Under the pieces are notes generated by a model that was given only the letters and a program-made list of their open reading frames with translations, did no database searches and had not been told where the DNA came from. Shown here piece by piece: positions 2,880-53,771 of a stretch of DNA of 64,000 nt. Each line of letters starts with the position of its first letter. Positions within the stretch are counted from its first letter, which is position 1. This DNA is from an uncultured Chloroflexia bacterium (GTDB taxonomy: Bacteria > Chloroflexota > Anaerolineae > Anaerolineales > Villigracilaceae), in the NCBI GenBank assembly GCA_963760315.1, contig CAVXCK010000007.1, forward strand, positions 268,481 through 332,480. The letters are read 5' to 3'. The translations under genes were made by a program, and so were the position numbers.

Positions 2880-4463
2880 TTAAAATTCGAAACAGAGGTA
2901 AGTCATAAACAGGGGTGTGAAGGCTGCTCGTGAGGTCAGTTCCACGTAATCGATTTGTCGGGCAAGCGTTTCAGCCTCCCGGCGCTTGTCCACCGATACG
3001 AGCATCTGTTTTGCCCCTACTCCGGCTGCATTGCCCACCTGGTGGAAGCGGTCCATTGGCAGGGGTGGGAACATCCCCGTGCGCACGGCTGAGCGTAGGT
3101 CGAGGTACGTGCCAAATGCTCCGGCAACAATGAACTCGTCCAAATCGGCGTAAGTCAGCCCGGCGTTTTCCAGCAGGATTTCCACCCCGACCCGGATGGC
3201 GGATTTTGCCAATTGGATTTCATGGACATCCTTGCGGGTGACGACCAGGTCGCGCCCCAGACCCGTCTGCTCGGCAGGAACGATTACGATTTCAGACCCG
3301 ATACCTTTCTTCATAACTCCTGTCGGCTTGACCAGGTTGCCGTCTTGCATTGCCGCGACGATATCTAAAATCCCCGAACCGCAGATACCCACCGGCGGCA
3401 TGTTTTCGATGCTTTGCCATAGGATTTTCCCATCTGACCACCGTGCCCTTTCGATGGAGCCAGGCGCAGCCCGCATGCCTTCATGGATGTGTGCGCCCTC
3501 GAAGGCTGGACCGGAGGCGCATGAGCAGCAGGTGACTTTGCCGTTCGCTACCAGGCTGATCTCTGTGTTCGTGCCGATATCCAAAGCGATGATGGTGCCT
3601 GGCGATTTCCATGCATCGGTCGCCAGCAGCATGGCAATGTGGTCCGATCCCACATACCCGGCGATAACCGGTGGAAGATACGCTTTTGCGCCGGGGCCGA
3701 GATTTAATCCCAGTTCACTGGCGGGGAGGGTTAACGCCTGCGTAATGGCCGGAGCGAATGGAGCACGACCTAGCTGTTCTACGGGTAGCCCTGCGAACAG
3801 GTGGTGCATCGTCGTGTTGCCGACCAGTACGGAGTCCAGTACAGAATTAGGTGTAATGTGCGCCTCCGCACACATCTCCACCAGTAATTTATTCAGCGTT
3901 TTCACGAGTTCTATTTGGAGTCTTTTTGCTCCGTCTGGTTCGCGTCCAGCATACGCGATTCGACTGATGACATCCTCGCCGAAGGCGATTTGCGGGTTCA
4001 TCGCCCCGGATTTGGCTGTCGTCGCACCGGTTTCGAGCTGGACGAGATAGGTCGCCAGCTTGGTGGTGCCGATGTCCACAGCCAAGCCGTATGCTCCCGG
4101 TGTGCGTATCGCCGGGTTAACCGCGATGGACGTTTCCAGCCCTTCCACTTGCAGGCGCTGGGCGCTGGTCAGGGACTCGGGGGGGATATCGAGTTTTACG
4201 TCGCTGAGCGGCTCGGCTTGGCAGGCCAGGCGGATTCCGTTAGCCAGGTCTGATTCGCTCAGGGCGGCCTGTTCCACCAGGGTTGGCGGAGTCAGCTTCC
4301 CGGCAGCCAGTCGGAGGCGGCACTCCTCGCACGTCCCCGCGCCTCCGCATACTGACGCCAGCCCGACTCCAGCGGCCTGGGCAGCAGCCAGAAGGGTCTT
4401 CCCGGCTTGGATTTCAACGCGCCGGCCGAGCGGTTCAAAGTCAATACGGAAGTTCTCAGGCAC
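2880..4463 (-). CDS. corrinoid reductive activator (RACo-type: N-terminal 2Fe-2S ferredoxin domain + ASKHA/DUF4445 ATPase)
   Basis: Intact 527-aa ORF. The N-terminus has plant-type ferredoxin cysteines (CGGAGTCEEC...C), followed by an ASKHA-like body (DIGTTK, DIGTNTE, GSGI motifs). Confidence 0.75.
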   Translation of the reverse strand: MPENFRIDFEPLGRRVEIQAGKTLLAAAQAAGVGLASVCGGAGTCEECRLRLAAGKLTPPTLVEQAALSESDLANGIRLACQAEPLSDVKLDIPPESLTSAQRLQVEGLETSIAVNPAIRTPGAYGLAVDIGTTKLATYLVQLETGATTAKSGAMNPQIAFGEDVISRIAYAGREPDGAKRLQIELVKTLNKLLVEMCAEAHITPNSVLDSVLVGNTTMHHLFAGLPVEQLGRAPFAPAITQALTLPASELGLNLGPGAKAYLPPVIAGYVGSDHIAMLLATDAWKSPGTIIALDIGTNTEISLVANGKVTCCSCASGPAFEGAHIHEGMRAAPGSIERARWSDGKILWQSIENMPPVGICGSGILDIVAAMQDGNLVKPTGVMKKGIGSEIVIVPAEQTGLGRDLVVTRKDVHEIQLAKSAIRVGVEILLENAGLTYADLDEFIVAGAFGTYLDLRSAVRTGMFPPLPMDRFHQVGNAAGVGAKQMLVSVDKRREAETLARQIDYVELTSRAAFTPLFMTYLCFEF

Positions 4464-7857: not shown

Positions 7858-7863
7858 ATCCAT

Positions 7864-37405: not shown

Positions 37406-37422
37406 CCAAAACGGAGAAAATC

Positions 37423-37878
37423 ATGGAACGATCACTCGTGCTTGTCAAACCTGACGGTGTCCAGCGAGGATTGATTGGCGAAGTTATCAGCCGTCTCGAA
37501 CGCCGTGGGCTGCGGCTGATGGCCGCGAAATTCTTACAAGTCAGCCAGGAACTGGCCGAGACGCATTATGCTATTCACAAAGGCAAACCCTTTTATGATG
37601 GTTTGATTGAGTATATTACCTCTGCGCCGGTCATGGCGATGGTCTGGGAAGGGCCGAATGCTGTTGCCGCCATCCGCCAGACGATGGGTGCCACCCGCCC
37701 GACTGATGCCGCACCTGGCTCGCTGCGCCACGATTTTGCACTTGAAATAGGCCGCAACCTGACCCACGCCTCGGATACGGTCGAAAATGGTGAAAAAGAA
37801 GTCGCACTTTGGTTCAAACCCGGTGAATTGGTGGACTGGAAACGTGAAACCGACCGCTGGATATTTGAGAAGAGTTAG
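37423..37878 (+). CDS. ndk: nucleoside diphosphate kinase
   Basis: Intact 151-aa ORF with MERSLVLVKPDGVQRGLIGEVISR..., NLTHASD and a conserved histidine region. Confidence 0.95.
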   Translation: MERSLVLVKPDGVQRGLIGEVISRLERRGLRLMAAKFLQVSQELAETHYAIHKGKPFYDGLIEYITSAPVMAMVWEGPNAVAAIRQTMGATRPTDAAPGSLRHDFALEIGRNLTHASDTVENGEKEVALWFKPGELVDWKRETDRWIFEKS

Positions 37879-38018
37879 CATGGCTGGAAGACTGACTGAT
37901 GTTTACTTTGGATAGTCTCATTTTCAATTGTTTATTCCGATAGACATTTGAACAGTCAAAATATAATAATCATACTAATATAATCATATCCGATCCTACA
38001 CAGCAAAAGGAGTATTTC

Positions 38019-38670
38019 ATGACCGAAGAACTTTTCCAGAAAATGGCGCAGAGCGTCCTTGACGGGGATTCTGATGCCGCTATCGCCTTGGCGAAGCAGG
38101 TCAATCGAAGCCGGCATTGACCCGCTGGAGGCCATTACCAAAGGCTTTGTGGCAGGCGTCAACCAGGTTGGCGAAAGTTTTGCCAGCGGGCAGGCTTTCC
38201 TGCCAGAACTGGTGATGGCGGGAGAAGCCATGAAAGCCGCCGTTTCCACCCTGGAACCTGAAATGCAGAAGCGTGGCTTGCATCGAACGATGCTTGGGAA
38301 GGTCGTTCTGGCAACTGTTGAAGGCGATATTCACGAGATTGGTAAATCGCTGGTGGGGACGATGCTCTCAGCCTCCGGCTTTCAGGTCTATGATCTGGGC
38401 GTGGATGTCCCGGCGGCCAAGATCATTGCCAAGGTCCAGGAAGTGGGCGCTGACCTTGTCGGCTTGAGTGCTCTGTTGACAACCACCATGGTCAAGCAGA
38501 AGGAAGTGATTGACGAACTGGATAAGCTGGGTTTGCGCAAGAAGGTCAAAGTGATGGTGGGCGGTGCGCCCGTGACCCGCGACTGGGTTCAGAAGATCGA
38601 AGCGGACGGTTACTCCGAAGATGCCATCGGCGCGGTTGGTCTGGCCAAGCAACTGGTTGGGGCAGCATAA
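38019..38670 (+). pseudogene. corrinoid (cobalamin-binding) methyl-carrier protein, MtgC/MttC-like, one frameshift near 38100
   Basis: RBS AAAGGAG upstream of the ATG at 38019. B12-binding cap helix region, DxHxxG motif (GDIHEIG), SALLTTT and GGAP. Confidence 0.8.
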
Positions 38671-38688
38671 CCGCACTTGGAGCCTGCC

Positions 38689-40142
38689 ATGCCGAAAACG
38701 ATCAAGTCCATCACCAATCCGAAACTGCGGTTGGAAATATTGACGCCGCAGGAAGTCAAAAAAATCCATGATGCCACACTGTGGATCATCGAAAAGGTTG
38801 GCGTGCGCTTCCCCTCCAAACGTGCATTGGAAATCTGGGCAGCACATGGCGCTGAAGTTGACGGCGAGAAAATGGTCGTTCGCGCCAAGGGGGAACTCAT
38901 CGAAAAAGCCTTAAAGACCTGTCCGCCGGTCTATACCCTGGCGGCACGCGACCCGCAACAGGATTTGCCGCTGGACGGCAACCACGTCTTTGTTGGCACG
39001 GACGGCTGCGGCGTGGAAGTGATTGATATCAAGACCGGTCTGCGCCGGACTTCCTGCCTGCAGGATGTGCGGGATATTTCCCGTATCGCCGATGCAACCG
39101 AGGAAGTGGCCTTTCACTGGGTGCCGGTCTCGGCGCAGGACATGCCCCCCGAGACGCGCGGCCTGCACGAGATCAAAGCCATCTGGGAAAATTCCACCAA
39201 GCACGTTCAGACCGAATCCATTTATAACGAACGCGAAGCGCGTGCTGCAATTGAAATGGCGGCGCTGATCGCAGGTGGCAAGGACAAGTTGCGCCAGCGC
39301 CCGGTCCTTTCGCTGATGCAGTGCTCGGCTCCACCGCTTGGGCACGACGGCGGCAGCCTGGATGCGGCGCTGGTGGCTGCTGAATACGGCCTTCCAACCG
39401 GGTTTATGACCATGGCGGCGAACCTGACCACCGGTCCGGCCACACTGGCGGGTAATCTGGCGGTTGGCAATGCCGAAGTAATCGCCGGGACGGCGCTTAT
39501 CCAATTGGCATATCCGGGAGCGCCGGTCTTCTATGCCGCGGCACAGACCGCCTCCGATTTGCGGACAGGAGCCTACACTGGCGGCGGTCCGGAAGATTTC
39601 CTCTACGGTGCGGCCACCAATGTACTCTCAGATTTTTACAATATCCCGCTCTCGATGGGTTCGTTTGCCACCGGGGCGAAGGAACCGAACTGGCAGGCGG
39701 GCATCGAGAACAGCCTGTCCACGTTCATGGCGAGCATTGTCATGTCGGATATGCTGTTGGGTGTGGGCTTTCTTGCATGGCAGCCGCATCTGGTCGTTTG
39801 CCGAGATGATGATGGACTGCGAGATCTTCTCCATCATCCGCAAGACGATGCAAGGCATTGTTGTGGACGATGAGACCCTTGCGCTTGATACGATTGCAGC
39901 GGTTGGCCCGGGCGGCAATTTCCTCTCGCAGAAACATACCCTCAAACACATGCGCGAACTCTTCCTGCCGCAATTCATGGACCGGCGTCCATTCAATGAG
40001 TGGGAGACGAAAAAAGATGATGCCCGTGATTGGGCGCTGGCAAAAGCGCGTAGAACGCTGGAAACGCACCAGCCCGATCCGCTGGACTGAAAAAATCCGC
40101 AATGAAATGGCGAAAATCATTTCATCGCTGGAGAAATCATGA
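38689..40142 (+). pseudogene. MttB-superfamily (non-pyrrolysine) substrate:corrinoid methyltransferase, paralogue 1, 2 frame changes
   Basis: Long family-typical stretches (KIHDATLWIIEKVGVRF, DGCG, FHWVPVSAQD, KHVQTES, AIEMAALI, LAYPGAPVFY). No in-frame TAG. Pieces are 38677..39873, 39533..40090 and 39858..40142. Confidence 0.8.
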
Positions 40143-41606
40143 CTGCGATGCAACCAAAACTCGAACTGCTGACATCTGACCTGATTGCACGCATCCTGGA
40201 TGAGGCTTTCCAGTTGATGCAAAAGCCGGGGATAAAAGTCCAATCTACTGAAGCGCGTGGTTTGCTGATAGAAGGCTGGCGCGACGGCTGACGGGGAGGT
40301 GGTAAATATCCCGGAAGAAATCGTTCGCAAGGCGTTGGATACTGTCCCGGCGGAATTTTATCTCTTTGACCGGAGCGGGAATCCCAAAGTCCATTATGGC
40401 GGGAACTCTGTCCACTTTGATCCGGGTTCATCCGGTGTCCATATCCTCGACCCGGAAACGCTGGAGCACAAACCTTCCTATGCGCCAGACCTGGTGCGCG
40501 TAGTCAAAGTGGCCGAGATGCTCCCGCAGTACGACGCCCAGTCCACGGCCATCGTCTGCAATGAAGTCCCCAAAGCAATTGGCGACCTGTACCGGCTGTA
40601 CATCGTCCTGCTGTTTTCGCAGAAACCAATCGTGACCGGTTCGTTTTCCCTTCAGACCCTCGGCACGATGATTGATATGCTGGCAATTTTCTCCGGTAAC
40701 CGCCGAGGCGCTGGCTGAAAAACCGCAGGCAGTCTTCGATGTATGTCCGTCGCCGCCGCTCATCTGGAGCGAATTTGGCGCAGGTAACCTGATCGAACTG
40801 GCCCGGGCACGTGTCCCTGCGCAGCTCATCTCGATGCCGCTGGCCGGGGCCGCTGCACCGGTAACGTTGCTCGGTTCGGTCGTCCAGCATGCTGCCGAGA
40901 GCTTGAGCGGGATTGCCATCCATCAGCTTGCCAACCCCGGCGCTCCCATCGTCTGGGGCGGCGCGCCGGCCATCTTTGATATGCGCCACGGCACCACGCC
41001 GATGGGCGCCATCGAGACGGCCATGATCGACGCGGCCTATGCCCAGGTCGGCAAGTCGCTCAACCTGCCGACCCATGCCTATCTCGGCGCTTCCGACGCC
41101 AAAATTGTGGATGCCCAGGCCGGGCTGGAAAGCGGGGTTACAGCCCTGGTTGGCGCGCTGGCGGGCATCAACATGATTTCCGGGGCGGGGATGCTCGATT
41201 TCCTGGCCTGTCAAAGCCCGGAGAAGCTTGGTAGTGGATGCCGAAGGGATTGCCATGGCCCAACGTCTTGCTGGCCGGGATCGAAGTCCGCACCGAGACG
41301 CTGGCGACCGCCCTGTTCGAAGGGATCAATTTCAAAGGCGACTTCCTCAAGCAAAAGATCACCCGCGAGCTGTTCCCCAAGGAACAAAATCTACCATCGG
41401 CAGTGATCGACCGGGAATCCCACCGCGGCTGGCAGGCAGCCGGCAGTCTCGATACTTTTGCCCGTGCCAAAATCCGGACCCGTGAACTGCTCGCCGCTTA
41501 CCAACGCCCGAGTTACGCCCCAGAGCAAGAACGTGACCTGCAGGCGATGGTCGAGGACCTAGCTCGCAATGCTGGCATGGACATATTACCTGTGCTGCAA
41601 AGCTGA
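40139..41606 (+). pseudogene. MttB-superfamily methyltransferase, paralogue 2, at least 4 frame changes
   Basis: The ATG overlaps the upstream stop (ATGA). Pieces are 40139.., 40299..40718, 40672..41406, 41228.. and 41238..41606. Motifs PLAGAAAPVTLLGSVVQHAAESLSGIAIHQLANPGAPIVWGG. Confidence 0.75.
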
Positions 41607-41784
41607 ACTTGTTGAACAGAATCATATTGTCTGACGTATAATTTAGATATATGGTATGTGTATGGACGGCCCTATTTTGATATCGACTATCGCTCGCAAA
41701 GGAGGTGCTAACGGAGCTTGGTTTGCGGCCTTCTCTAGTCTCTTAGTTATATAACCAGTTCTAAAAGGAAGAAAGGAGAATAGA

Positions 41785-43461
41785 ATGCGTAATCAATTAA
41801 TAAGAATCTTCGTATTAATGGCTGTGCTTAGCCTTGTACTTTCAGCTTGTGGCCCAAAAGTAGTTCCTGCAACTGCAACTCCCGTACAAGCAATCGTCAC
41901 ACCCGTGCCGAGCACCCCGGTACCAGCTGTAGATAAGATCGTCACCATGGCTTGGACGCAGGAACCCAACTCGCTGAACCGTTCGTACTCGAGTATGTGG
42001 TACATGTCAACGCTCATCCAGATCTACAGCTGCTCACCCTGGCAGTATGACGAAAAAAATGAGCCATATGCCTTCATGCTCACAGAACTCCCAACTATTT
42101 CGGATGACGGCCTGATTGTCACCATGCACCTGCGGGATGACCTGAAATGGTCAGACGGGGAGCCGATCACGGCGGACGATTTCGTGTTCACCTATGACAT
42201 GATCACCAACTCGGCCAATTCGGTTGACTCGGTTTACCCGTACGACAAGTTCACTGTCTCGGCTCCGGACCCATTAACCGTGGTCATGACTTTCGCTGAA
42301 GTCTTTACTCCATGGATGTCTACCATCTGGCAGGGCACGATCATGCCCAAGCATGTGCTGCAGCCGGTTTTTGATGCCGCAGGCACGATTGACTCGGCAG
42401 ATTGGAATATGGCTCCAACTGTTGGTTGTGGGCCATTCACCTTCACTAAATGGGAGTCTGGCAGTTACCTCCGCTTTGACCGGAACGAAAATTACTGGGC
42501 GACGCCGGCCAAGCTGGACGCAGTCATTTTCCAGTTCGTCCCGGATGATGCTGCCCAGACAGCCGCCTGCCTGGCAGGCGACGCGGATTTGTGTTTCTGG
42601 CCGCCCTACGAGGACATCCCCGCCTTCCGCGCGGCTGGTCTGAGCGTGATGACCGAACCATCCGGATATAACGAAGGCTGGTTCTTCAATATGCGGAAAA
42701 TGGCATCGCCTTTCATCAAGGATCTCAACGTCCGCAAGGCGATTGCCATGGCACTCGATCGCGAGAAGAATACCGACTTGCGCCTGAATGTGGTCAAAGT
42801 GACCGAGACCTTCTGGGATGCGCTGCCAGCATATGTTGATCCAGGCATCACCCCTTGGAAATATGACCCGGAGGCTGCGAAGGCACTTCTGGAAGCAAGC
42901 GGTTATGTCGACAGGGATGGAGATGGGATTCGCGAAGATGCGAATGGTAACAAGCTGATCATCTCGGAATCCAATACCACCAAGACCGAGCGCCAGAGTT
43001 ACCAGGCCTTGGCCCAGCAGCAGTTGCTGGCGGTCGGCATTGACCTCAAGATCTACAGCTATGACAGCGACATCCTATTCGACAGCTTCTCGAATGGGGG
43101 CCCGGCTGCCACTGGTCTCCAGGATATCTACCAGTGGTCAGACGTGCCAGCCTTCCCTGACCCCGACTCGTCCTACTGGCTGTGTGACCAGGTGCCCTCG
43201 GCTGCAAATCCTTTTGGCTTCAATTACTTCATCTGTGACCCAACCCTGGATGCCATGTTCAAGCAGGAAGTTGTAACTGTGGACCCGGCAGCACGGATGG
43301 AGATCTTCCACCAGATCACCCGCTATATGCACGACAATGTCTACTACCTGGGAATCTGGGAGGACGGTGACGTCTGGATCGTGAATCCGCGCATCACAGG
43401 CGCAAAGTTCTCGGAAGTTACTCCATTCTTCAATATCACTGAATGGGATATCGCCCAATAA
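41785..43461 (+). CDS. ABC transporter substrate-binding lipoprotein, family 5 (Opp/Dpp/Nik type)
   Basis: Intact 558-aa ORF with signal and lipobox (VLSLVLSAC). Size and patterns are typical of cluster C family-5 SBPs. Confidence 0.8.
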   Translation: MRNQLIRIFVLMAVLSLVLSACGPKVVPATATPVQAIVTPVPSTPVPAVDKIVTMAWTQEPNSLNRSYSSMWYMSTLIQIYSCSPWQYDEKNEPYAFMLTELPTISDDGLIVTMHLRDDLKWSDGEPITADDFVFTYDMITNSANSVDSVYPYDKFTVSAPDPLTVVMTFAEVFTPWMSTIWQGTIMPKHVLQPVFDAAGTIDSADWNMAPTVGCGPFTFTKWESGSYLRFDRNENYWATPAKLDAVIFQFVPDDAAQTAACLAGDADLCFWPPYEDIPAFRAAGLSVMTEPSGYNEGWFFNMRKMASPFIKDLNVRKAIAMALDREKNTDLRLNVVKVTETFWDALPAYVDPGITPWKYDPEAAKALLEASGYVDRDGDGIREDANGNKLIISESNTTKTERQSYQALAQQQLLAVGIDLKIYSYDSDILFDSFSNGGPAATGLQDIYQWSDVPAFPDPDSSYWLCDQVPSAANPFGFNYFICDPTLDAMFKQEVVTVDPAARMEIFHQITRYMHDNVYYLGIWEDGDVWIVNPRITGAKFSEVTPFFNITEWDIAQ

Positions 43462-43484
43462 CCATAAGCCTTAACATGCATTCC

Positions 43485-43514
43485 TGGCTGGGTCGGTTCT
43501 AACCGACCCAGCCA
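43485..43514 (+). other. intercistronic stem-loop after the family-5 SBP gene
   Basis: TGGCTGGGTCGGTT / AACCGACCCAGCCA form 14-nt perfectly complementary arms. No T-tract follows. Confidence 0.6.
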
Positions 43515-43536
43515 ATTTCCAATTCTGGAGCAGCCT

Positions 43537-44570
43537 ATGGGTCGATACGTTATTCGCCGTCTTTTGCAGGCAATTCCCCTGCTGTTGATAATTAGCATTG
43601 TCATTTTCTTGCTTCTGCAAAGCAGCGGTGATCCCCTCGCGACCATGGGAGGCCGCCGTACCGTCCGCCCCGAAGACCGCGCACGTTTGGCCCGCCAGCT
43701 CGGGCTTGATAAACCGATCTACATCCAATATATCTATTGGTTGGTTGGTAATGACTGGGTGAAGATTGATGTAAATGGTGACGGCATCCCTGACACTGCC
43801 GGTACCCGAAAGGGAGTATTGCGCGGCGATTTTGGGACCTCGTTGGTCTCGCGGGAAGATCTGCCCTATCGCTGATCGCTGAACGCCTGCCGAATACTTT
43901 AATCCTGATGATCCCTGCTGAAATCATCGTATTAATCATCTCGTTTCTTGTCGGAATTTACTCGGCCCTGCGCCAGTATACCTGGGTGGACCAGTTGGTG
44001 ACCACCGGCTCCTTTATTGGCTATTCCATGCCCATCTTCTTCGTTGCCCTGGCCTCTATGTACCTGTTTGCGGTTGATTTCCGGAAGTGGGGGCTGCCTT
44101 ACCTGCCGACGGTCGGCATGTTTGATCCCAAAGTGGGGAAGACAGTTGGGCAGGTCATCCTGCACATGGTGCTGCCTATCTTCAGCATGTCTTTGGTCAG
44201 CGTCTCCGCTTACAGCCGGTATGTCCGCTCACAGATGCTGGAAGTTAATAACCAGGACTACATTCGTACCGCCCATGCCAAGGGTCTGACCGAACGGCAG
44301 GTGCTGGTCGGTCATGCCTTGAAGAATGCCGCCATCCCCATTGTCACCCTGGTGGGTATCGAAATCCCCTTCCTGCTCGGAGGTGCAGTGGTCACGGAGA
44401 CCATCTTCGGTTGGCCAGGGATGGGACGTCTTTTCATTGATCACCTCACCCGCTCCGACACTCCGGTGGTGATGGGCATCCTGATGCTAATCTCGGTGGC
44501 GGTGGTCGTATGCCAGTTGATTACGGATATCGTTTACGCCTGGCTTGACCCGCGCATCCGTTATAGTTAA
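43537..44570 (+). pseudogene. Opp/Dpp-type ABC permease (DppB-like), one frameshift near 43870
   Basis: N-terminus MGRYVIRRLLQAIPLLLIISIVIFLL. The C-terminal piece 43908..44570 has TAHAKGLTERQV and ends DPRIRYS. Confidence 0.8.
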
Positions 44571-44587
44571 GGAAGGATACTGAGATC

Positions 44588-45541
44588 ATGGTATCTCCAA
44601 CTTCTGATACTCCCCCAGCCGCAATCGCCAGGATCGAAAAGCCTCAGTTGACTTTCTTCCAACTTGTCTGGCTGCGTTTTAAACGTCATAAGATGGCCGT
44701 GGCTGGTATCATTTCCCTTTTCATCTTAATATTATATGCCATCGTGGGTACTGCCTTCACCTCCGAAGCCTACTCCAATGTCACGGATACCAGCATCCGT
44801 TTGATGCCTCCTTCCCACGAGCACCTTTTTGGTACCGATACGGTCGGACGGGATATCCTCAGCCGCACCATATACGGAGGGCAGATCTCTTTGATGATCG
44901 GACTGGTAGCCATGGCGGTGGAAGTCGTTGTGGGTGTGCTGATCGGTGCCATCGCCGGCTATTATGGGGGAATTGTTGATAGTCTGCTTATGCGCTTCAC
45001 CGAAGCTATGTTCAACATCCCGCAGATCCCCCTTTTACTGGTGCTGGGGAAGCTTCTGGCAGACAAAGTGCCACCGATGAACCTGTTCGGGCGCGAATTT
45101 AGCGGTAGCGTGATTGTCATCATTGCGGTCATCGGCCTGACCAGCTGGATGGGGCTCGCTCGCATCGTGCGTGCCAATTTCCTCTCTCTCAAAGAGCAGG
45201 AGTTCGTCACCGCGGCTCACTGCATCGGCACCCGCAACGGGCCGATCATCTTCGGACACATCCTGCCCAACACGATGGCACCCATCATTGTCAGCGGCAC
45301 TCTTGGAGTTGCAAACGCCATCATTAGTGAAGCGTACGTAAGTTTCCTGGGAGTGGGTGTGATGCCCCCAACCGCCACGTGGGGGAACATGCTCAATGGA
45401 GCTTACCAGTATATCGAGACCGCCCCCTGGTTGTGGATCTTTCCGGGCCTCCTGATAGTCCTGACCGTCCTTTCCATCAATTTCATTGGTGACGGCTTGA
45501 GGGATGCTCTTGATCCGCATTCGCTGGTTGGAACAGAATAG
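44588..45541 (+). CDS. Opp/Dpp-type ABC permease (DppC-like)
   Basis: Intact 317-aa ORF with HLFGTDTVGRDILSR and an EAA-like region. Confidence 0.85.
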   Translation: MVSPTSDTPPAAIARIEKPQLTFFQLVWLRFKRHKMAVAGIISLFILILYAIVGTAFTSEAYSNVTDTSIRLMPPSHEHLFGTDTVGRDILSRTIYGGQISLMIGLVAMAVEVVVGVLIGAIAGYYGGIVDSLLMRFTEAMFNIPQIPLLLVLGKLLADKVPPMNLFGREFSGSVIVIIAVIGLTSWMGLARIVRANFLSLKEQEFVTAAHCIGTRNGPIIFGHILPNTMAPIIVSGTLGVANAIISEAYVSFLGVGVMPPTATWGNMLNGAYQYIETAPWLWIFPGLLIVLTVLSINFIGDGLRDALDPHSLVGTE

Positions 45542-45550
45542 GAGTTCAAC

Positions 45551-46537
45551 GTGGATCCATTGCTTGAGGTCAGAAATTTAAAGGTTCAATTCACCACCAT
45601 GGAAGGGGTGGTCCACGCAGTGAATGGGGTCTCTTTTCAACTCGAAAAAGGGAAGACAATAGGTATAGTCGGAGAGAGCGGGTGTGGGAAAAGCGTGACG
45701 ATGTTATCGGTCATTCGGTTGATCCAGGAACCTCCCGGCCACATCACCGAGGGGGAGGTGTTCTTCCAGGGGCATGACCTGTTGAAACTCCCTAAATCAT
45801 CCATGCACGAAATTCGGGGAGCTAAAATTGCCATGGTTTTCCAGGACCCGATGACTTCGCTGAACCCGGTCCTGACCATCGGACATCAGATCAGTGAAGC
45901 CTTGGTTGTGCACACCGGGATCGGGAAAGAAGAAGCGTATAAGAAAACCATAGAATTGCTGGAGATGGTCGGCATCCCGCTAGCACACGAGCGCTATAAG
46001 GATTATCCACACCAGTTCTCCGGGGGTATGCGCCAGCGGGTGATGATTGCGATGAGTCTGTCCTGCAAACCGGATATCCTGATAGCCGATGAGCCCACCA
46101 CCGCCTTGGATGTCACCATTCAAGCTCAGATCGTTGAACTGACGAAAAAGCTCCAGACCCAGTTTGGCATGGCGGTCATCTGGATCACGCATGACCTGGG
46201 GGTGGTCGCGGAGATTGCTGACAAGATGAACGTCATGTATGCCGGTTACATTGTAGAAGAGGCGGATGTCTACGAGATCTATGAAAATCCCCGCCATCCG
46301 TATACCCTTTCCCTGCTGAAATCCTTGCCACGAGTGGATCGGAAAAAGCATGACCGCTTAGCGAACATCCAGGGTTCCCCGCCCGATTGCATCCAAATGC
46401 CCCCCGGCTGCCCTTTCAAACCGCGCTGTGGGTTTGGCGTTGAACGCTGTGCAGAAGAAAATCCAGTTCTGACGACAGTGGCAGAGAGCCATAGGATAGC
46501 CTGTTGGGTGGATGTGACCACCGGGAGGGCTCGTTGA
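45551..46537 (+). CDS. Opp/Dpp-type ABC ATP-binding protein (DppD/OppD-like)
   Basis: Intact 328-aa ORF with Walker A GESGCGKS, signature FSGGMRQR, Walker [13 protein letters not shown] and a C-terminal oligopeptide-ABC extension. Confidence 0.9.
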
Positions 46538-47518
46538 ACACATCGCAGATACTGGTTCAGGTTCGGGGATTAAACGATATTTCCCCATCACCCGGGGGAT
46601 CCTCATTCAAAGGCAGGTGGGAGCGGTTAGGGCGGTAGATGATGTCAGCTTTGATATTTACCGCGGAGAGACACTGGGTTTGGTTGGGGAAAGCGGGTGT
46701 GGGAAGACGACCACGGGGCGGACGATGATTCAGTTGTACCGTCCGACCGCTGGGCAGGTGCTGTATGAAGGCGCAGATCTGACCCGGGAGAAAGGTCAAA
46801 CCCTGCGCAATCGGCGGCGGAAAATCCAGATGATCTTCCAGGACCCCTACGCCTCCCTTAATCCACGCTGGACGGTCTCCCGCATCATTGGAGAGCCGTT
46901 GAAGGTGCATATGATTATCACGGGGAGGAAAGCGCAGGAAGAGCGGGTTCGGCAACTGTTAGAACTGGTGGGGCTTGACCCTTGCCATACAAATCGCTAT
47001 CCCCACGAATTCTCCGGTGGCCAGCGGCAGCGGATCGGCGTGGCGCGCGCCTTGGCCTCCGACCCCGAATTCATCGTGTGCGATGAACCCATTTCCGCCT
47101 TGGACGTGTCCATCCAGGCCCAGGTGGTCAACTTGCTCGAGGATCTTCAGGACCGGTTCGGGCTGACCTACCTCTTCATCGCTCACGATCTCACCATGGT
47201 CCGCCATATCTGTGACCGCGTGGCGGTCATGTACCTGGGAGTGATGGTTGAAATGGTCGGACCGGAATGAAGTTTATGACCATCCACTCCACCCGTATAC
47301 AAAAGCGCTGCTTTCTGCCGTTCCGATACCGGATCCCAGGAAGACCGGGCGCGGCAGCGGATAATTTCTAGACGGGGGATGTGCCCAGTCCGATCAACCC
47401 ACCAGCCGGCTGCCGTTTCCACCCGCGCTGCCCGCTTGCAGGCGAGCAATGCCGGCGTGACATCCCCGAATGGCGCCTTGTCGCCCCCGGCCATTGGGTT
47501 GCCTGCCATAAAGTTTGA
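46534..47518 (+). pseudogene. Opp/Dpp-type ABC ATP-binding protein (DppF/OppF-like), at least 4 frame changes
   Basis: [17 protein letters not shown] and [12 protein letters not shown]. The reconstructed tail is [18 protein letters not shown]...ACHKV, with stop at 47516..47518. Confidence 0.8.
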
Positions 47519-47532
47519 AAGAAAGAAGGGCC

Positions 47533-49361
47533 ATGATTGACCTAGGGGTTTTGTTGCGCGTTCCTTGTGTGGAAGTGGAGATGGGCTTCGATGTCTCGCC
47601 CGACGGCGAACGGGCTGCCTTTTCCTGGAATCCGGGTGGACGTTGGGAGATCTACGAAATCACCTTGCCCCATGCTGGAACCGGGACAACCACATGCGGC
47701 AATTCCGATCCTCACCTTATTTCACATTGGACCAGGCGGTAAATTCCACCCGCGCTATTCTCCCGATGGCCGCCACCTGGCCTTCACTGTGGATTTCGAT
47801 GGCAGCGAAGCCTTTCACCTCTTTGTCCATGATTTTGCCACTGGCGAACAGCGCGACCTGACCCCGGATATCGAAATGTTCCCTGCAGGCTAATATTCTC
47901 TTGGTCGCCGGATGGAAAATCAGATCGCCTTTATTTCTGATCAATCCGGGCAATTCGATGTATACGTGATCCCTGCCGAAGGCGGCGAAGCCCGGCTTGT
48001 GCTGGACGCCGGATACCCGGCCTGGAAGGTGCGCTGGTCTCCGGATGGATTTTGGCTGGCAGTAACGGTCGAGGCGGGAGGGATAGATTTCGGCACCTAT
48101 ATTGTCACCGCTCGAGGAGGATGGGGCAGTGCATCAGGATTGCCGATGAAAGCGGGCCGATCGATGCCGGGCAGGCCTGCTGGTCGCCGGATGGCACGCG
48201 GCTGGCTTTTACCTCGGACGTGCACGGCTACAACAATATCGGCATCTTTGAGCTGGCACACGCATCACATCCATTGGTTGACGGATGGGGAAGGGGAGAA
48301 GCAGTTTCCAGCCTGGTCGCCAGACGGAAGACGGCTGGCTTACGTTTTCAACCGTAGCACGATATCCTGGTTGGTAGATGCAAGAAGCCAGGCGAGTCTC
48401 CGCGGATGTACCAGGTTGAGCCGGGTGTTCATTACCTGCCCCACTTCACACCGGATGGCAACCATATCATCTTCGCTTTCGATAATCCGCGCCATCCGGC
48501 GGACCTATGGTCGCTTTCGCTGGAGGATGGGAACTTCACGCAGTTAACTCATTCCCTGCCGACATGAATTGCAGAATGTCCCATTCGCCATGCCGGAAGA
48601 GATCACCTATCCCGGGTTGGATGGGACGCCCGTTCCGGCTTTGCTGTTCAAACCGCAGGGTCAAAAAACCCGGCCCGGCAGCGATTCTGATCCATGGCGG
48701 ACCGGACTGGTTTTTTGAGATGACCTGGTACCCATTAATGGCTCACATGGCTTCGCGGGGTTGGGTGGTGCTGGTGCCCAACTACCGCGGCTCCACCGGC
48801 TACGGGCGTGCCTGGCAGGAAGCCAGCCGTTTCGACTTCGGCGGGGTGGATAATGATGACGTTGCCGCCGGCGCGCAATTTCTCCTCCGGAATGGCCTGG
48901 CCGATCCGGAACGGATCGGCATCACCGGCCGCAGTCATGGCGGGTATCTGACCATGACTTGCTTGACGAAATATCCCGACCTCTGGGCAGCTGGATCGGC
49001 GGTTGTGCCGTTTCATCAATTGGTTCACCAATCATAAATAAATCCGCCCCGACCTCCAGCATTGGGATTACGAAAATTTTGGAAATCCGGATGAAGATCA
49101 TGATCTATGGGTCGAACGGTCGCCATATTTCTTTCTTCGACCGGGTTACTGCCCCGGTGCAATTGATTGCTGGCAGGCTGGACCAGCGCTGCCCGGTCAG
49201 CGATTCTATCGAAGCGCATGAAGTCTTGCAAAGCATGGGCAAGGAAGCTGGAATTGGTGGTTTACGAAGATGAGGGCCATGCTTTTCTAAAAATGGAAAA
49301 TGTGCTGGATTCCGAACAGCGCCGCGTGGCATTTCTTGCGAAATATATTGAGAAGGAGTAA
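47533..49361 (+). pseudogene. S9-family serine peptidase (TolB-like beta-propeller + prolyl-oligopeptidase/dipeptidyl-peptidase catalytic domain), at least 8 frame changes
   Basis: Repeated SPDG propeller motifs (YSPDGRHLAF, WSPDGKxIAF, WSPDGTRLAF, WSPDGRRLAY, FTPDGNHIIF). The catalytic domain has NYRGSTGYG, GITGRSHGGY (GxSxGG) and a C-terminal YEDEGHAF. Confidence 0.75.
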
Positions 49362-49392
49362 CGACTTTAGTATTATACGCAGGAGAAGTGCG

Positions 49393-50810
49393 ATGATCCG
49401 TCTTTCTGTTCTGGACGAAAACGAGATCGAAGCCATCCATCAGTGCCAGCCTGCGCATCCTGGGCGAAACCGGTGTGGTGCTGACCGAGCCAAAAAGCCG
49501 CGCACTCCTGACCGCTGCGGGCGCCAGAGTTCAGGAGAGGCGTGTCCTGCTTCCCGCCCGAATTGGTGGAGAAGTGCATTGCCCTGGCCGGGAAGAGGAC
49601 AACCATCCGGGGACGGGGCGGGGCGGTCAAGACACTTGGTGACGGGTAACTGTATTTCCACAACCTGGGCGGTGCACCACAGGTTTACGATGCTGCTTCC
49701 GGGACACGCCGCCTGGCTACCGTCCAGGATGTCCGGGATGCCACCCGTTTGCTGGATGCGCTTGGAGAATTGCCACACCATCACTCCTTTCTTTACGCCG
49801 ACCGAAGTGCCGGGCGGGGTGATGTCGCTGGCGATGTATCGACATGCATTACCGTATACCGTAAAACCTCTTGCAAGGACCGGGCGTCCAGTACGCTGCT
49901 GAAGTCCGTTACGCGGTCAAGATGGCGGAGTGATCGGACCACCCGCGGAAGTATTGACCTTATCACTTTCTCCGGTCAGCCCGCTTGACCATCCCCGACC
50001 ACGAGGCCGAGGCAATCATGGAGATCGCCCGGCTGGGGATCGCTTTTGCGCCCCTGCCTTGTCCCACCGCCGGGACGACCGCACCATTCTCCATTGCCGG
50101 GGCCATTACCCAGCAGAATGCCGAGGTCTTGGCGGCGCTGGTGCTGGCGGAACTTGTCCAGCCGGGTCTGCCGATTATTTACTGTGGGCGGTTGGCGATG
50201 ATGGAACCCCGCACCGGGCTTTCCGTTTGGGGCGGGGTCGAGATGGGGATGGCTTCCGCAGGGACGGTGCAAATCGGGCATCGCTATGGGCTGCCGGTCA
50301 ACGTTTATGGTTTTTCCACCAATGCGCATAGCCTCGATGTCCAGGACGGGTTCGAGCGTGCCCTGAACGCTGCCATTCCTGCCCTGGCAGGCGCGGACGA
50401 ACTCTCCGGGATCGGTGAAATGGAAGCCGGGGTGATGGGATCCTATGCCCAGATGGTGGCTGATAACGAATTTGCCGGGAGCATTATCAGGATCCGAAAA
50501 GGCATTCGCTGCGGACTCAGATGCGCTGGCGGTGGATGTGATCGCGGCGGCGATGTCGTCCACGCGCAATTTCCTCGGTCAAAAACATACCATGAAATAT
50601 CTCAAGTCCGGCGAAGTATTTATGACAAAACTGGCCGAGCGCGGCTCCTGGGAAGCGTGGGAGAATTCCGGTCGGGTTGGCTTGGTCGAACGGGCGCAGG
50701 CCGAGGCTGAACGGATTTTGCGCGAGCACCAGGTCCCGCCACTGGAGGCAGCCCAGGAGCGGGAACTGGATGCCTTGATGATGTCTGCTGAAAAAGAATT
50801 GGTAAAATAA
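49393..50810 (+). pseudogene. MttB-superfamily methyltransferase, paralogue 3, at least 6 frame changes plus an in-frame TAA at 49647
   Basis: RBS AGGAGA upstream of the ATG at 49393. Pieces include 49985..50710 (LPCPTAGTTAPFSIAGAITQQNAEVLAALVLAELVQPGLPIIY) and 50445..50810. Confidence 0.7.
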
Positions 50811-50873
50811 TGATTCACGCATCCAAATTCACGTGTCTTAGGACAATTCGGAGAAACGATCAGGTGAATATGC

Positions 50874-52140
50874 TTGAAAAAGCGCAGTGCAATTCAAAAA
50901 CAACTGAGCGACTGGCGGCGGGATTTCCATATGCACCCGGAACTCGGCTTCCAGGAAACACGTACGGCTGCAAGAGTGGCCGAAACCCTGGAGAAATTCG
51001 GGTACCAAGTGCGGCGCGGCGTCGGGCGGACTGGTGTGGTCGCGGACCTTGGGAGCGGGAAACCACGTTGTCGCCATCCGCGCCGACATGGATGCATTGC
51101 CGCTCCAGGAGACCAACCAGGTTCCGTATGCTTCGCAGAATCCCGGGGTGATGCACGCCTGTGGGCACGACAGCCATACCGCCATGGTGCTGGGCGCGGC
51201 GGCTTTGCTCTCCCGTGAAAAATTTCCCGGGACGGTGCGGTTCCTGTTCCAGCCTTCTGAAGAAGTGGCCGATGAAGAAGGCTTGAGCGGCGCGCCGCGT
51301 ATGATCCAGGATGGAGCGATGGAAGGTGTGGATATGGTCATCGCGCGCATGTTGACCCGCGCAACCCGCTATCGGAGCCATCTGCATCAAGTCCGGGCCT
51401 GCCTCCGGCGGAGTGGATTCCTGGTTTGGGGAGATCATCGGCAAAGGGGGCCACGGCGCTCACCCGCACCAGTCCATTGACCCGTTTTACATCGCTGCCC
51501 ATGTTATCCTGGCTTTGAATGGGATTGTCTCGCGCCGCCTCGATCCGTTTGACCCGGCGGTGGTCAGCATCGGTTCTCTCAATGGCGGATTTACCGAAAA
51601 TGTAATCCCGGAGCAGGTTAAAATTGACCGGAACGTTGCGGTATACCCAGAAACGTGTTCAGGAACAGATCCATGCTGAGATCCGGCGCGCCTTTGAAAT
51701 TGCCCGTACTCTGGGCGGGAATTACGAACTCAAGCTCGAGATCGGTACGCCGCCGATGATCAACTCACCCGTGGCTTCGGATCTGATCGAGGCCGTTGCT
51801 ATTGATCTGCTTGGCAAGCAAAACCTCCTTCCACCGAAAGATGAATTGGGTGCTGAGGATTTCGGTTGTTTCATGGAACTTGCTCCTGGGAGCAATGTTT
51901 TCCCTGGGAACGGGCAGTGAAAGCTTTTCGTGTCTCATCCACACCCCTGATTTTGACCTTGATGAACGCAGTCTCCCGGTCGGCGCGGCAGTACTGGCGG
52001 AGACGGCGTTACGGTTTTTGAAGAAAAGGTCATTATCGTTGCGGGAAGAGTTAATTAAGCTGATTGCTATCTGCTTATACTTGCATGCTTGTGCTGGTTG
52101 CGAAACCCTTCCCACCGCGGCACAAAATGGATTGGTTTGA
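50874..52140 (+). pseudogene. M20D-family amidohydrolase (N-acyl-amino-acid/hippurate-hydrolase-like), at least 5 frame changes; 3' end uncertain
   Basis: [37 protein letters not shown] and [15 protein letters not shown], spread over pieces 50874.., 51034.., 51413.., 51624.. and 51796... Confidence 0.75.
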
Positions 52141-52194
52141 TTTTCTCGAAAGAGCGAATGATATGGAATTATGTTTAATCCAAAAGGAGTTCAC

Positions 52195-53070
52195 ATGCAC
52201 ACGATTTTGAAATCTACAACCAGGGAAGTCATCATCGGCATTGACCGCCCCTTCGTGATGATCGGCGAGAAGATCAACCCGACCGGCCGCAAGAAATTGG
52301 CTGCCGCTCTATCCGAAGGCAACCTGGACTACGCCCGCCAACTGGCCGAAAGCCAGGTGGCCTGGGGTGCGGATGTGCTGGATATCAACGTAGGCGTACC
52401 CGGGGCTTGACGAGGTGGCCGTAGTCAAAAAACTGGTGGAATTGCTCGTCTCGGTCGTGGACGTGCCGCTCTGCCTTGATTCCGCCAACCCGGCGGTTCT
52501 GGCTGCCGGTCTGGCTGCCGCACCGGGCAAGCCGCTGGTCAACTCTGTCAGCGGCGAGGAGAAACAAGCTGGCGACAGTCTTGCCGCTGGTCAAGGAGCG
52601 CGGCGCGGCTGTCATCGGTCTGACCATGGACGATAACGGCATTCCCAAGACCCCCGAGGAACGCCTTGCCGTAGCCGAGAAGATCATCGAACGCGCCGCC
52701 AGGATGGGCATCCCGGTCGAAGACATCATTATTGATCCGCTTGTGCTTGACCGTCGGCTCGGACAGTAAAGCCGCGCTCATCACGCTCCAGACCGTGGAA
52801 TTACTGCGCAAGGAATTCGGCGTCAACATCAACCTGGGTGCCAGTAACGTCTCATTCGGTCTGCCCGACCGCCCCACCGTCAACCAGGCGTTCCTGACCC
52901 TTGCCATCCAGATGGGCGCCACCTGCTCGATCACCGACCCATCGAAACTCGGGATCACTGTCAAGGCCGCCGATATGCTCCTGGGCCGCGATGACAACTC
53001 CATGCGCTACCTGAAGTATTTCCGCCTCGCTGAGAAGCTGAGAGCCGCGGAAGCAGAGAAAGCAGTGTAG
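52195..53070 (+). pseudogene. pterin-binding methyltransferase (MtrH/MtgA/AcsE-like methylcorrinoid:tetrahydrofolate methyltransferase), at least 3 frame changes
   Basis: RBS AAGGAG 5 nt upstream of the ATG at 52195. Motifs GEKINPTGRKKL, DVLDINVG, LVNSVSGEE and NLGASNVSFGLPDR. Pieces are 52171.., 52415.., 52476.. and 52732..53070. Confidence 0.7.
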
Positions 53071-53097
53071 AATTAGCGGTTCTCAGGTATAAGAAAA

Positions 53098-53127
53098 GCT
53101 CCCTTTCCAATATGGCAGAAAGGGAGC
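53098..53127. terminator. terminator hairpin between convergent genes (better U-tract for the minus-strand LysE gene)
   Basis: GCTCCCTTTC (53098..53107) pairs with GAAAGGGAGC (53118..53127). On the minus strand it is followed by TTTTCTT. Confidence 0.6.
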
Positions 53128-53151: not shown

Positions 53152-53771
53152 CTATATCGGCCAGTGAGCTCCGGTTCCCAGCCACAGTTCGTATAGGCCA
53201 AAACATGCCAGTGCAATAGCCGAGACACCTATCAGCACCCTGCTTACCCGCGGGCCGAGATTCTTTGCTGTCGAAAAAAGCAGCATGATCCCCAGCGTGA
53301 CGAGTATTAGGGTGGTATAAAATCCTATCATCAACGCAATCCCGTTGGCGGGGGACTCACGCCACCCCTTTACCAGTAGCGGACCCATGACCAGGCTCCA
53401 GCCAATGTATGGAGCAGGGTTCAGCAGGTTCACCATGGCGGCTTTAAGGATGGTTTGTCGGTTGGATTGGACTTGAACCGCTTTCTTGATGTCGAAGTCC
53501 CGCCAGGTTTTGTATGCACTGAAGGCCAGGTACAGGAGGAAACTCCGCCTGCACATTGTAAAACTTGTACCAGCCAACCGGGCATGTTGCTCAATACCAA
53601 TAATACCAATATGATAATTGGCCCGTCGCTGAGCAAAGGAGCGAACGCAGCTGGAATCGTGCGGCGCCAGCCATTCGCCAGGGTTTGGGAGATGAGATAG
53701 GTTTGGAGAGGTCCGGGCTGTACCGCAGCCGCAAAGGCATAAGTCATTCCCAGGATCAGGTAACCCGGCAT
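53152..53771 (-). pseudogene. LysE/RhtB-family amino-acid exporter, one frameshift near 53560
   Basis: N-terminal piece 53430..53771 (AFAAAVQPGPLQTYLISQT) and C-terminal piece 53152..53577 (NLLNPAPYIGW). Multi-TM protein. Confidence 0.65.

Follow-up and report, generated by a model that had tools for sequence, protein, structure and literature searches.

Thousands of homologues of MttB that lack pyrrolysine (non-Pyl) carry the label 'trimethylamine methyltransferase', and five substrates are known: glycine betaine, proline betaine, carnitine, gamma-butyrobetaine and phosphocholine. Missing knowledge of the active sites has been said to block the interpretation of MttB homologues in metagenomes (PMC13080624). 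Here we describe a locus in a 64,000-nucleotide stretch of DNA (the window) from contig CAVXCK010000007.1 of an uncultured Chloroflexia bacterium, in which twelve genes at 38019-53070 bring three such methyltransferases together with an Opp/Dpp-type ATP-binding cassette (ABC) importer and two amide hydrolases. The reading we prefer, to which we assign a probability of about 0.5, is that a functional and conserved module imports N-blocked or quaternary-ammonium peptide-like compounds, hydrolyses them and demethylates them to folate.

The MtgB-MtgC-MtgA system of Desulfitobacterium hafniense, which works with a RamA-type activase, shares with this locus a non-Pyl MttB-family TIM-barrel enzyme, a corrinoid protein with a DxHxxG motif, a tetrahydrofolate (THF) methyltransferase and a reductive activase. 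In contrast to that system, the paralogues described here are 26-32% identical to MtgB, lack its residues Y97, R312, H348 and F356, number three or four per locus and share it with genes for an Opp-type ABC importer and two amide hydrolases. In Eubacterium limosum, several MttB paralogues (MtpB, MtcB, MtyB and MthB) likewise feed one corrinoid protein, MtqC, and one THF methyltransferase, MtqA, alongside RamQ (PMC8604678, PMC13080624). The E. limosum components are, however, scattered, and their substrates are free acidic quaternary amines with R312 kept, whereas the present locus is without this Arg and has Opp, S9 and M20 genes as neighbours; the contrast with MtpB, MtcB, MtyB and MthB is drawn from the conservation of R312 reported for them. 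An earlier note on this DNA had stated that, as far as known, loci of this kind carry betaine-type carriers and not Opp-type importers or peptidases. This needs to be loosened slightly, as MtyB and MtcB of E. limosum adjoin major facilitator superfamily (MFS) transporters, which are not necessarily classical betaine carriers (PMC8604678).

A third comparison is offered by MtgBCD of Ruegeria pomeroyi, which demethylates glycine betaine towards methionine (PMC12478193). A gene with a homocysteine S-methyltransferase domain stands at the end of the locus in three relatives (L003, L114 and L117; loci of relatives are given as L and a number), which points to homocysteine as a possible further acceptor of methyl groups. 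In contrast to R. pomeroyi, the window has a THF-type methyltransferase only and comes from an anaerobe-like member of the Chloroflexota whose MttB proteins are not MtgB-like.

Judged by its sequence, the core of the locus belongs to the corrinoid-dependent MttB-superfamily systems and is MtgBCA-like, with methyltransferases that are neither MtgB nor MttB proper. What appears to be new is the conserved coupling to an Opp/Dpp-type importer and to a pair of hydrolases, one like acylamino-acid-releasing enzyme (AARE) and one of the M20D type, the presence of three to four deep MttB paralogues per locus, and the loss of a carboxylate-binding Arg otherwise universal in characterised members. The literature searched (MttB with peptidase, oligopeptide, Anaerolineae or trimethyllysine) gave no account of an MttB-Opp-peptidase linkage, and the surveys of Anaerolineae within it treat mttB as an annotation count only; the earlier note likewise knew of no described substrate route of this kind.

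Gene content of the locus

The twelve genes all lie on the plus strand, and the families and the order that had been proposed for them were recovered in full from coordinates, Pfam matches and NCBIfam scores. They are listed here with two further genes of the window.

38019..38670, plus strand: Cor, corrinoid (B12-binding) protein, MtgC/MtbC-like; DxHxxG motif present as DIHEIG; one +1 frameshift near 38101
38689..40142, plus strand: MttB1, MttB-family methyltransferase, non-Pyl; Pfam MTTB 4.3e-60; frameshifts at ~39770 and ~40086
40139..41606, plus strand: MttB2, MttB-family, non-Pyl; Pfam MTTB on two fragments; four +1 frameshifts
41785..43461, plus strand: SBP, family-5 substrate-binding lipoprotein (Opp/Dpp/Nik-type, cluster C); intact, 558 aa, lipobox LSAC; SBP_bac_5 6.7e-75
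43537..44570, plus strand: Perm1, ABC permease (OppB/DppB-like); 94.8% identity to the L001 permease; one frameshift near 43854
44588..45541, plus strand: Perm2, ABC permease (OppC/DppC-like); intact; 92% identity to the L001 permease
45551..46537, plus strand: ATP1, ABC ATPase (OppD-like, oligo_HPY tail); intact; 91% identity to L001 ATP1
46534..47518, plus strand: ATP2, ABC ATPase (OppF-like); four frameshifts; 89.6% identity to L001 ATP2 in a frameshift-aware alignment
47533..49361, plus strand: S9 serine peptidase, acylaminoacyl-peptidase type, beta-propeller plus alpha/beta hydrolase; PD40 and Peptidase_S9; GRSHGG
49393..50810, plus strand: MttB3, MttB-family paralogue; Pfam MTTB 1.9e-28; seven frameshifts, in-frame TAA at 49647
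50870..52029, plus strand: M20D amidohydrolase (aminoacylase/carboxypeptidase type); Peptidase_M20; 5-6 frameshifts
52195..53070, plus strand: MtgA/AcsE-like pterin-binding methyl-corrinoid:THF methyltransferase; Pterin_bind; three +1 frameshifts
2880..4463, minus strand: RACo/AcsV-type reductive activase of corrinoid proteins; Fer2, RACo_middle and RACo_C_ter; AcsV-like, 380 bits
4456..5133, minus strand: 225-aa protein accompanying RACo; Met_synt_B12 at 3.3e-4, below cut-off; weakly like the MetH reactivation domain

Successive genes of the locus are separated by 18, -4, 178, 75, 17, 9, -4, 14, 31, 59 and 165 nt. The short gaps, the DIHEIG motif of Cor and the ATGA at 40139, in which the stop codon of MttB1 overlaps the start codon of MttB2, are all as the earlier note had described them. 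Cor gave Pfam matches to B12-binding (6e-28) and B12-binding_2 on raw open reading frame (ORF) fragments and, when stitched, scored 230 bits on TIGR02370 (cut-off 215), while stitched MtgA scored 294 bits on NF005719 (cut-off 259). Amino acid identity to L018 is 94% for Cor, 95.5% for MttB1, 93% for MttB2, 88% for S9, 89.5% for MttB3 and 94% for MtgA. In M20, a 1-nt deletion at 52027 destroys the stop codon present in relatives, and the uncorrected frame continues to 52140.

A scan for promoters and terminators gave 15 matches, not above the shuffle expectation of 9.9 +/- 3.4, with promoter-like hexamers in the two larger gaps. Across the whole 64-kb window, tRNA and Rfam gathering-threshold scans returned no tRNA and no Rfam family, and hence no cobalamin riboswitch.

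Conservation of the linkage in Anaerolineae

One genome per GTDB species was scanned with an alignment of the SBP as query, and neighbouring genes were annotated with the L001/L003 protein set. Among these species representatives, orthologues of the SBP (41-70% identity) were present only in metagenome-assembled genomes (MAGs) of Anaerolineae/Chloroflexota, after which there was a sharp fall to generic Opp/Dpp SBPs at 31% identity or less. Genes for Cor, MttB, S9, M20, MtgA and RACo adjoin the SBP orthologues in L001-L010, L017, L018, L022, L023 and L032, with differing gene orders in L003, L005 and L006, and an MttB gene was found in 0 of roughly 48 generic family-5 SBP loci (<=31% identity). 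The identical order of twelve genes recurs in L018, L022, L095, L096, L104 and L164, an arrangement that is far above chance.

The two annotated references illustrate how the same parts are rearranged. L001, with an SBP 86% identical to that of the window, reads GntR, ornithine cyclodeaminase (OCD), aminotransferase, Cor, MttB, MttB, SBP, two permeases, two ATPases, S9, MttB, M20 and a fourth MttB. L003, where the SBP is 72% identical, has a like gene set in a changed order, namely GntR, Cor, MttB, MttB, S9, MttB, M20, MttB, SBP, two permeases, two ATPases, MtgA, RACo and homocysteine S-methyltransferase. The fourth paralogue (MttB4) is frequent in relatives, and minimal versions of the locus have MttB3 as their sole MttB paralogue.

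An independent scan of metagenomes, seeded with an alignment of S9, gave 380 relatives, the best 80 of which were analysed. MttB3 lies directly downstream of S9 in 37 of the 52 loci that extend far enough beyond it, M20 comes next after MttB3 in 25 of 33, and an Opp-type ATPase is the gene upstream of S9 in 33 of 52. MttB3 is thus the paralogue bound most tightly to S9 and M20. Homologues of MttB3 with 77% identity or above fall into at least 120 protein clusters, and all those with an organism name belong to Anaerolineales/Chloroflexi; the search returned such close relatives alone and so gave a view confined to the Chloroflexota.

The importer itself varies between loci. The closest relative of the window, L018 (Anaerolineae bacterium OBJ1_062018_150_34), is ~90% identical in nucleotides over 31.7-41.6 kb and 50.9-53.4 kb, and Cor, MttB1, MttB2, S9, MttB3, M20, MtgA and both flanks are closest to it (~90% nt; synonymous divergence, dS, of 0.3-0.8 as against >1.2 for the cassette). 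The proteins of the transporter cassette at 41.6-47.5 kb, in contrast, are 86-95% identical to L001 and only 47-69% identical to L018. As the cassette is nearer to L001 while the rest of the locus is nearer to L018, these sequences imply that the importer was exchanged by recombination within a conserved locus. In six metagenome loci (L117, L118, L126, L135, L144 and L148), a non-orthologous Opp/Dpp system stands between MttB2 and S9, with identities of 24-26% for the SBP, ~31% for the permease and 45-50% for the ATPases.

A more distant version occurs in Promineifilum/Ardenticatenaceae (Ardenticatenales). It is complete in L016 (15930-21615) and comprises an orthologous transporter, a cupin, a distant S9 (29% identity), a distant MttB (31% identity; 596 bits to PF06253) and a creatininase-family amidohydrolase that replaces M20. 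L024 carries MttB and creatininase upstream and in the opposite orientation, and L019, L021 and L026 each show part of the set. Cassette exchange, non-orthologous replacement and the Ardenticatenales version are more than inherited synteny and together indicate that the combination of an Opp-type importer, S9, MttB and an amidohydrolase has been retained or reassembled repeatedly. The linkage is real and conserved. Synteny of the Opp and peptidase genes with MttB, on which the earlier proposal depended, thus extends over many Anaerolineae genomes and metagenome contigs, and neighbourhoods combining MttB, family-5 SBP, S9 and M20 survive both reordering and replacement of the transporter. An exact look-up of the SBP of the window in the contig collection gave no match.

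The MttB paralogues and their predicted pockets

The MttB paralogues share 22-29% identity among themselves and 26-32% with D. hafniense MtgB and M. barkeri MttB; they are ancient and not recent duplicates. On raw fragments, the MTTB profile (PF06253) was matched at 4e-60, 1e-33 and 2e-28. The stitched frames of the MttB genes contain no in-frame TAG, the TAA at 49647 being their sole stop, and the column aligned to pyrrolysine holds Ala in MttB1 and MttB2 and Ser in MttB3 and MttB4. The earlier assignment of the three genes to the non-Pyl type was therefore sound, and the presence of Cor, MtgA and RACo genes in the window agrees with membership of that superfamily. They are not MttB proper, the trimethylamine methyltransferase, as they have no UAG and as their scores on TIGR02369, 207-440 bits overall and 341-440 bits for intact orthologues, are below the equivalog cut-off of 525. 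Nor are they closer to MtgB, whether of D. hafniense or M. vulcani (26-32%), than to M. barkeri MttB, and the best PDB matches of the L001 MttB1 orthologue are MtgB at 3e-74 and MttB at 1e-68.

According to a 2026 study of the glycine-betaine site of MtgB, the carboxylate is held by R312 and H348, and cation-pi contacts come from Y97 and F356 (PMC13080624). The same study reports that every characterised member (MtgB, MtpB, MtcB, MtyB and MthB) keeps R312 and that all of their substrates are acidic quaternary amines. Using an alignment of the pockets anchored on a conserved FYG(V/L)P motif, we found at the positions of Y97, R312, H348 and F356 the residues G/S/L/S in MttB1, S/H/S/L in MttB2, G/N/S/G in MttB3 and V/A/P/S in MttB4. 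None of the four betaine-binding residues of MtgB is kept in any of MttB1-4, and the residues of the tetrad are conserved across orthologues within each paralogue. Since both the tetrad and the residues of the Pyl column differ, the predicted pockets resemble neither that of MtgB nor that of MttB, and the small residues of MttB3 suggest a larger cavity. Nesting within the MtgB clade, which would have spoken against a new substrate, is not indicated at 26-32% identity and with the tetrad absent.

A further set of paralogues was seen in L145 (FWWM01004569.1), where the series Cor-MttB1-MttB2-S9-MttB3-M20 is immediately preceded by four more MttB-family genes with 31-39% identity to MttB1.

The two hydrolases

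In the alignment of S9, the catalytic triad S464, D546 and H578 is invariant and the nucleophile motif is GRSHGG. The closest solved relatives are AARE and acylaminoacyl peptidase (AAP) structures, namely 8wt1 (5e-40), 5l8s (7e-38, full length), 1ve6 from Aeropyrum (1e-30) and 4hxe from Pyrococcus, while matches to prolyl oligopeptidase (POP) and dipeptidyl peptidase IV (DPP-IV) were at 1e-13 or weaker. Domain layout, triad and closest relatives, which are AARE/AAP and not POP, DPP-IV or OpdB, place the enzyme among the S9C acylaminoacyl-peptidases. 8WT1 is listed as an AARE structure, and AAREs remove acetylated or otherwise blocked N-terminal residues (PMC12485367).

The stitched M20 protein scores 351 bits on TIGR01891 (cut-off 154), which is of the M20D type, and 342 bits on CpsA, below 500. 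Its closest solved relatives are ILL2, YxeP, 4ewt (S. aureus M20) and N-acyl-glutamine aminoacylase. Both hydrolases are presumed to be cytoplasmic, their N-termini having by eye no signal-peptide look.

The nearest known parallel is the route in which AARE (APEH, S9C) is followed by an aminoacylase. As in that route, the S9 enzyme of the locus is nearest AARE/AAP and its M20 enzyme nearest the N-acyl-amino-acid amidohydrolases, and the pair mirrors the release of a blocked residue followed by its deacylation. The eukaryotic partner, aminoacylase-1, is of the M20A type; the locus, in contrast, has M20D, and a methyltransferase gene lies between the two hydrolase genes. We know of no activity on methyl-blocked termini shown for either the S9C or the aminoacylase family.

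The importer and its binding protein

The transporter has the make-up of an Opp/Dpp-type (PepT) importer: besides the family-5 SBP there are two permeases with BPD_transp_1, one of which also has OppC_N, and two ATPases, each with an oligo_HPY tail. In L001, the counterpart of Perm1 has BPD_transp_1_N and BPD_transp_1, that of Perm2 has OppC_N and BPD_transp_1, and ATP1 has ABC_tran and oligo_HPY. The system thus shares with the Opp/Dpp/App importers the full five-gene architecture with OppC_N and oligo_HPY and a binding protein nearest in fold to AppA-nonapeptide; unlike them, its SBP is only 20-24% identical to any solved SBP and belongs to a clade restricted to Chloroflexota and tied to MttB.

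The AlphaFold2 (AF2) model of the SBP (pLDDT 80.8) has the cluster-C fold, and the top Foldseek matches are AppA-nonapeptide, NikZ, CtaP and NikA at 20-24% identity; modelling and fold search returned generic cluster-C neighbours only, with no clue to the ligand. An invariant W451-S-D453 aligns one residue off the W405-T-G-D408 of DppA, in which Asp408 is the amine anchor, and the position of DppA Arg355, the C-terminus anchor, is Ile, Leu or Phe in the SBP family. The SBP was rejected as a nickel binder of the NikA type: the ligands H416, R137 and R97 are replaced by Asp/Ala, a gap and Ser/Ala/Thr, and the score on TIGR02294 is 95 bits against a cut-off of 393.

Frame disruptions and the integrity of the locus

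The many frame disruptions in the window sequence had been flagged in the earlier note, along with the possibility that they are real and the locus decayed. Using a custom frameshift-aware protein-to-DNA aligner guided by intact relatives, we counted 36 frameshifts in the locus with L001 as guide and 40 with L018, together with two in-frame TAA codons. Relative to L018, there is 1 in Cor, 2 in MttB1, 4 in MttB2, 1 in Perm1, 4 in ATP2, 13 in S9, 7 in MttB3, 5 in M20 and 3 in MtgA, and none in SBP, Perm2 and ATP1, the sole intact ORFs of the locus. After correction, Cor, M20D and MtgA pass curated NCBIfam cut-offs.

Net insertions account for 36 of the 40 frameshifts (32 net +1 and four net +2), and there are no large deletions. 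In the segments 90% identical to L018, nucleotide alignment showed single inserted bases outside homopolymers, and inspection of the insertion sites by eye revealed no shared sequence motif or homopolymer context. Natural decay of bacterial pseudogenes is deletion-biased. The corrected genes have ratios of nonsynonymous to synonymous substitution (dN/dS) relative to L018 of 0.055 for Cor, 0.064 for MttB1, 0.082 for MttB2, 0.119 for S9, 0.070 for MttB3, 0.123 for M20 and 0.092 for MtgA, as compared with 0.11-0.26 for intact flanking genes. The genes of the locus are thus under purifying selection. The damage is also not confined to the locus, as citrate synthase (59962-61276) and HypF (24843-25854) are each split over two overlapping frames, which marks the frame errors as window-wide. 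L001, L003 and L018 have intact copies of the locus, and two related long-read contigs of multi-hundred-kb to Mb size (L085 and L086) carry the same locus with other genes fragmented.

Insertion bias, low dN/dS, splits across the window and intact relatives all lead us to read the ~40 frameshifts as probable assembly errors of a long-read MAG, and the locus as probably a functional catabolic module conserved in Anaerolineae and not a decayed one. A uniform sequencing error is, however, a poor fit. Frameshift density is uneven, at ~7/kb in S9 and ~5/kb in MttB3, M20 and MtgA, 0 over the 3.6 kb of SBP, Perm2 and ATP1 and ~0.3/kb in the upstream flank, and such error does not explain the two nonsense TAA codons, which arose by substitution relative to L018 (49039 in S9, for Tyr; 49647 in MttB3, for Ser) in well conserved surroundings. 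That the locus is a genuinely decaying pseudogene array which has lost its function in this strain would account for ~40 frameshifts and two in-frame TAA codons concentrated there, at a density far above that of the 6-kb upstream flank. We nevertheless consider decay very unlikely, given indels of which 90% are insertions, nearly all of a single base and without large deletions, dN/dS of 0.06-0.12, equal to or below that of intact flanking genes, and the breakage of citrate synthase and HypF in the window and of different genes in L085 and L086.

As a separate observation, in a comparison of 38000-53100 with 31700-37900, frameshift density roughly follows local G+C (0.57-0.58 as against 0.51-0.54).

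Proposed pathway and alternative explanations

In the pathway that we propose, the lipoprotein-anchored Opp/Dpp-type ABC system would import a small cationic peptide-like compound with N-methyl groups, most likely one with a quaternary-ammonium or otherwise N-blocked end. In the cytoplasm, the AARE-like S9 and aminoacylase-like M20D enzymes would then cut its amide bonds; both are classic enzyme types for peptides without a free N-terminal amine. The three diverged non-Pyl MttB paralogues (four in relatives) would methylate the Co(I) of one shared Cor, the MtgA-like enzyme would hand the methyl group to THF, and the RACo encoded elsewhere in the window would re-reduce oxidised corrinoid. In some relatives, the homocysteine methyltransferase domain may pass the methyl group to homocysteine. 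The families, the linkage, the divergent pockets and the purifying selection are observed; which way the methyl groups flow, whether hydrolysis comes before demethylation and, above all, what the substrate is, we infer. Candidate substrates are peptides with an N-alpha-trimethyl or dimethyl end, trimethyl-lysine peptides and betaine-acyl amino acids. The route from methylated peptides or conjugates suggested in the earlier note is thus supported in part, in that its linkage and enzyme families stand, while its substrate is still a deduction from those families.

A more specific form of the proposal is that Anaerolineae harvest methyl groups from protein-derived or natural-product N-methylated peptides by a new anaerobic route, in which Opp imports the peptide, S9 and M20D release the methylated residue and the Arg-less MttBs demethylate it to folate, with different paralogues possibly taking successive steps; we put this forward tentatively, as something possible rather than probable. 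If true, these would be the first MttB-family enzymes acting on peptide-derived substrates, and the route would be a new sink for methylated nitrogen compounds and a one-carbon source for abundant uncultured sediment Chloroflexota, the Anaerolineae being a class abundant in anoxic sediments and digesters. The locus adds four deeply diverged, highly conserved MttB subfamilies whose context, a dedicated importer and two hydrolases, is informative: it narrows the search for a substrate to peptide-like or N-blocked methylated compounds and makes the system directly testable.

Several observations pull the other way and have to be weighed here. The substrate is deduced entirely from gene families, and ligands of the Opp/Dpp SBP fold include nickel chelates, opines, sugars and small amides as well. 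Characterised MttB-family enzymes use free small quaternary amines and not peptides. In two Anaerolineales/Anaerolinea MAGs, L020 (14823-20286) and L034, the transporter is linked only to MttB1, Cor and RACo, which lie divergently before it, and to genes for carbon monoxide dehydrogenase (CODH), the beta subunit of acetyl-CoA synthase (ACS) and CdhD after ATP2; S9 and M20 are lacking, which implies that the imported compound may be demethylated directly. The last two points would suit a system whose SBP binds free amino-acid betaines, or other small quaternary amines, that the MttB paralogues demethylate directly, each serving its own betaine class or methylation state, with S9 and M20 acting on side substrates or on demethylated products; the invariant Trp-x-Asp of the SBP near the position of DppA Asp408 is compatible with any cationic amine. 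However, S9, MttB3 and M20 move as a unit in the metagenome loci, the Ardenticatenales analogue has hydrolases too, and the carboxylate-binding Arg of the characterised acidic-betaine enzymes is missing from every paralogue. We also know of no family-5 SBP that binds a betaine, and on balance we regard free betaines as unlikely to be what the locus handles.

The remaining objections concern the linkage. Four loci (L145, L146, L125 and L134) have MttB, S9 and M20 genes with no transporter between them, and the homologous loci all come from one class, such that part of the synteny could be inherited and not selected. The importer and peptidases might accordingly serve general peptide scavenging and MttB, Cor and MtgA an unrelated betaine demethylation, the two being neighbours by shared regulation or ancestry, and the gaps of 178 and 165 nt, with promoter-like hexamers upstream of Cor and SBP, allow for separate transcripts, as the generic peptide and nickel binders that are the nearest structures to the SBP allow for an ordinary importer. 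Such loose co-location is nevertheless quite improbable in our estimation, as the linkage survives rearrangement (L003, L005, L006 and L136), exchange of the cassette between the window and L018 and non-orthologous replacement of the transporter, as MttB genes are absent from all of the roughly 48 generic family-5 loci, and as MttB3 is wedged in 31 nt after S9 and 59 nt before M20. The ABC system could also be envisaged as a Nik/Cnt-type importer of nickel or cobalt (chelates) that feeds corrinoid or CODH/ACS enzymes and brings in no substrate, in keeping with NikA and NikZ among the best sequence and fold matches of the SBP and with the CODH/ACS genes after the transporter in L020 and L034. 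We find this hardly credible: the NikA ligands are not conserved, the NikA-model score falls far short (95 versus 393 bits), S9 and M20 are left unexplained, and adjacency to CODH/ACS fits the assimilation of methyl groups equally. The import, hydrolysis and demethylation of N-blocked or quaternary-ammonium peptide-like compounds thus remains the reading that we favour.

Associated and neighbouring genes

RACo is the probable reactivation partner of Cor. Its gene lies 34 kb upstream of the locus in the window, whereas in relatives it is within or beside the locus, adjoining it in L003, L005, L006, L020, L034 and L086. Homologues of the 225-aa protein adjoin RACo or S9 in L005 and L006, and in L086 an unannotated gene of equal length (225 aa), matched by length only, adjoins RACo.

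A gene for a LysE-family exporter (53152-53771, minus strand), apparently frameshifted, is convergent to the end of the locus. It is also a neighbour in L018, L023, L085 and L086, and not in L003. A demethylated product might be its cargo, unless it is a mere neighbour. A GntR/FCD regulator stands at the head of the locus in several relatives (L001, 3162-6218; L003; L007; L155), and in L001 an OCD/mu-crystallin gene and an aminotransferase gene lie between this regulator and Cor. No GntR/FCD regulator, OCD/mu-crystallin or aminotransferase gene was found beside the locus in the window. We considered a part in the pathway for LysE, OCD/mu-crystallin and the aminotransferase and dropped it, their linkage being inconsistent.

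Upstream of the locus lie genes for Ndk, TPR proteins and a pyrimidine-nucleoside phosphorylase. Further upstream, 6704-23022 holds a large and mostly intact glycan-utilisation cluster (GH130, a LacI-type regulator, ABC permeases, GH16, two GH3 and two GH94 phosphorylases), which is unrelated to the methyltransferase locus.

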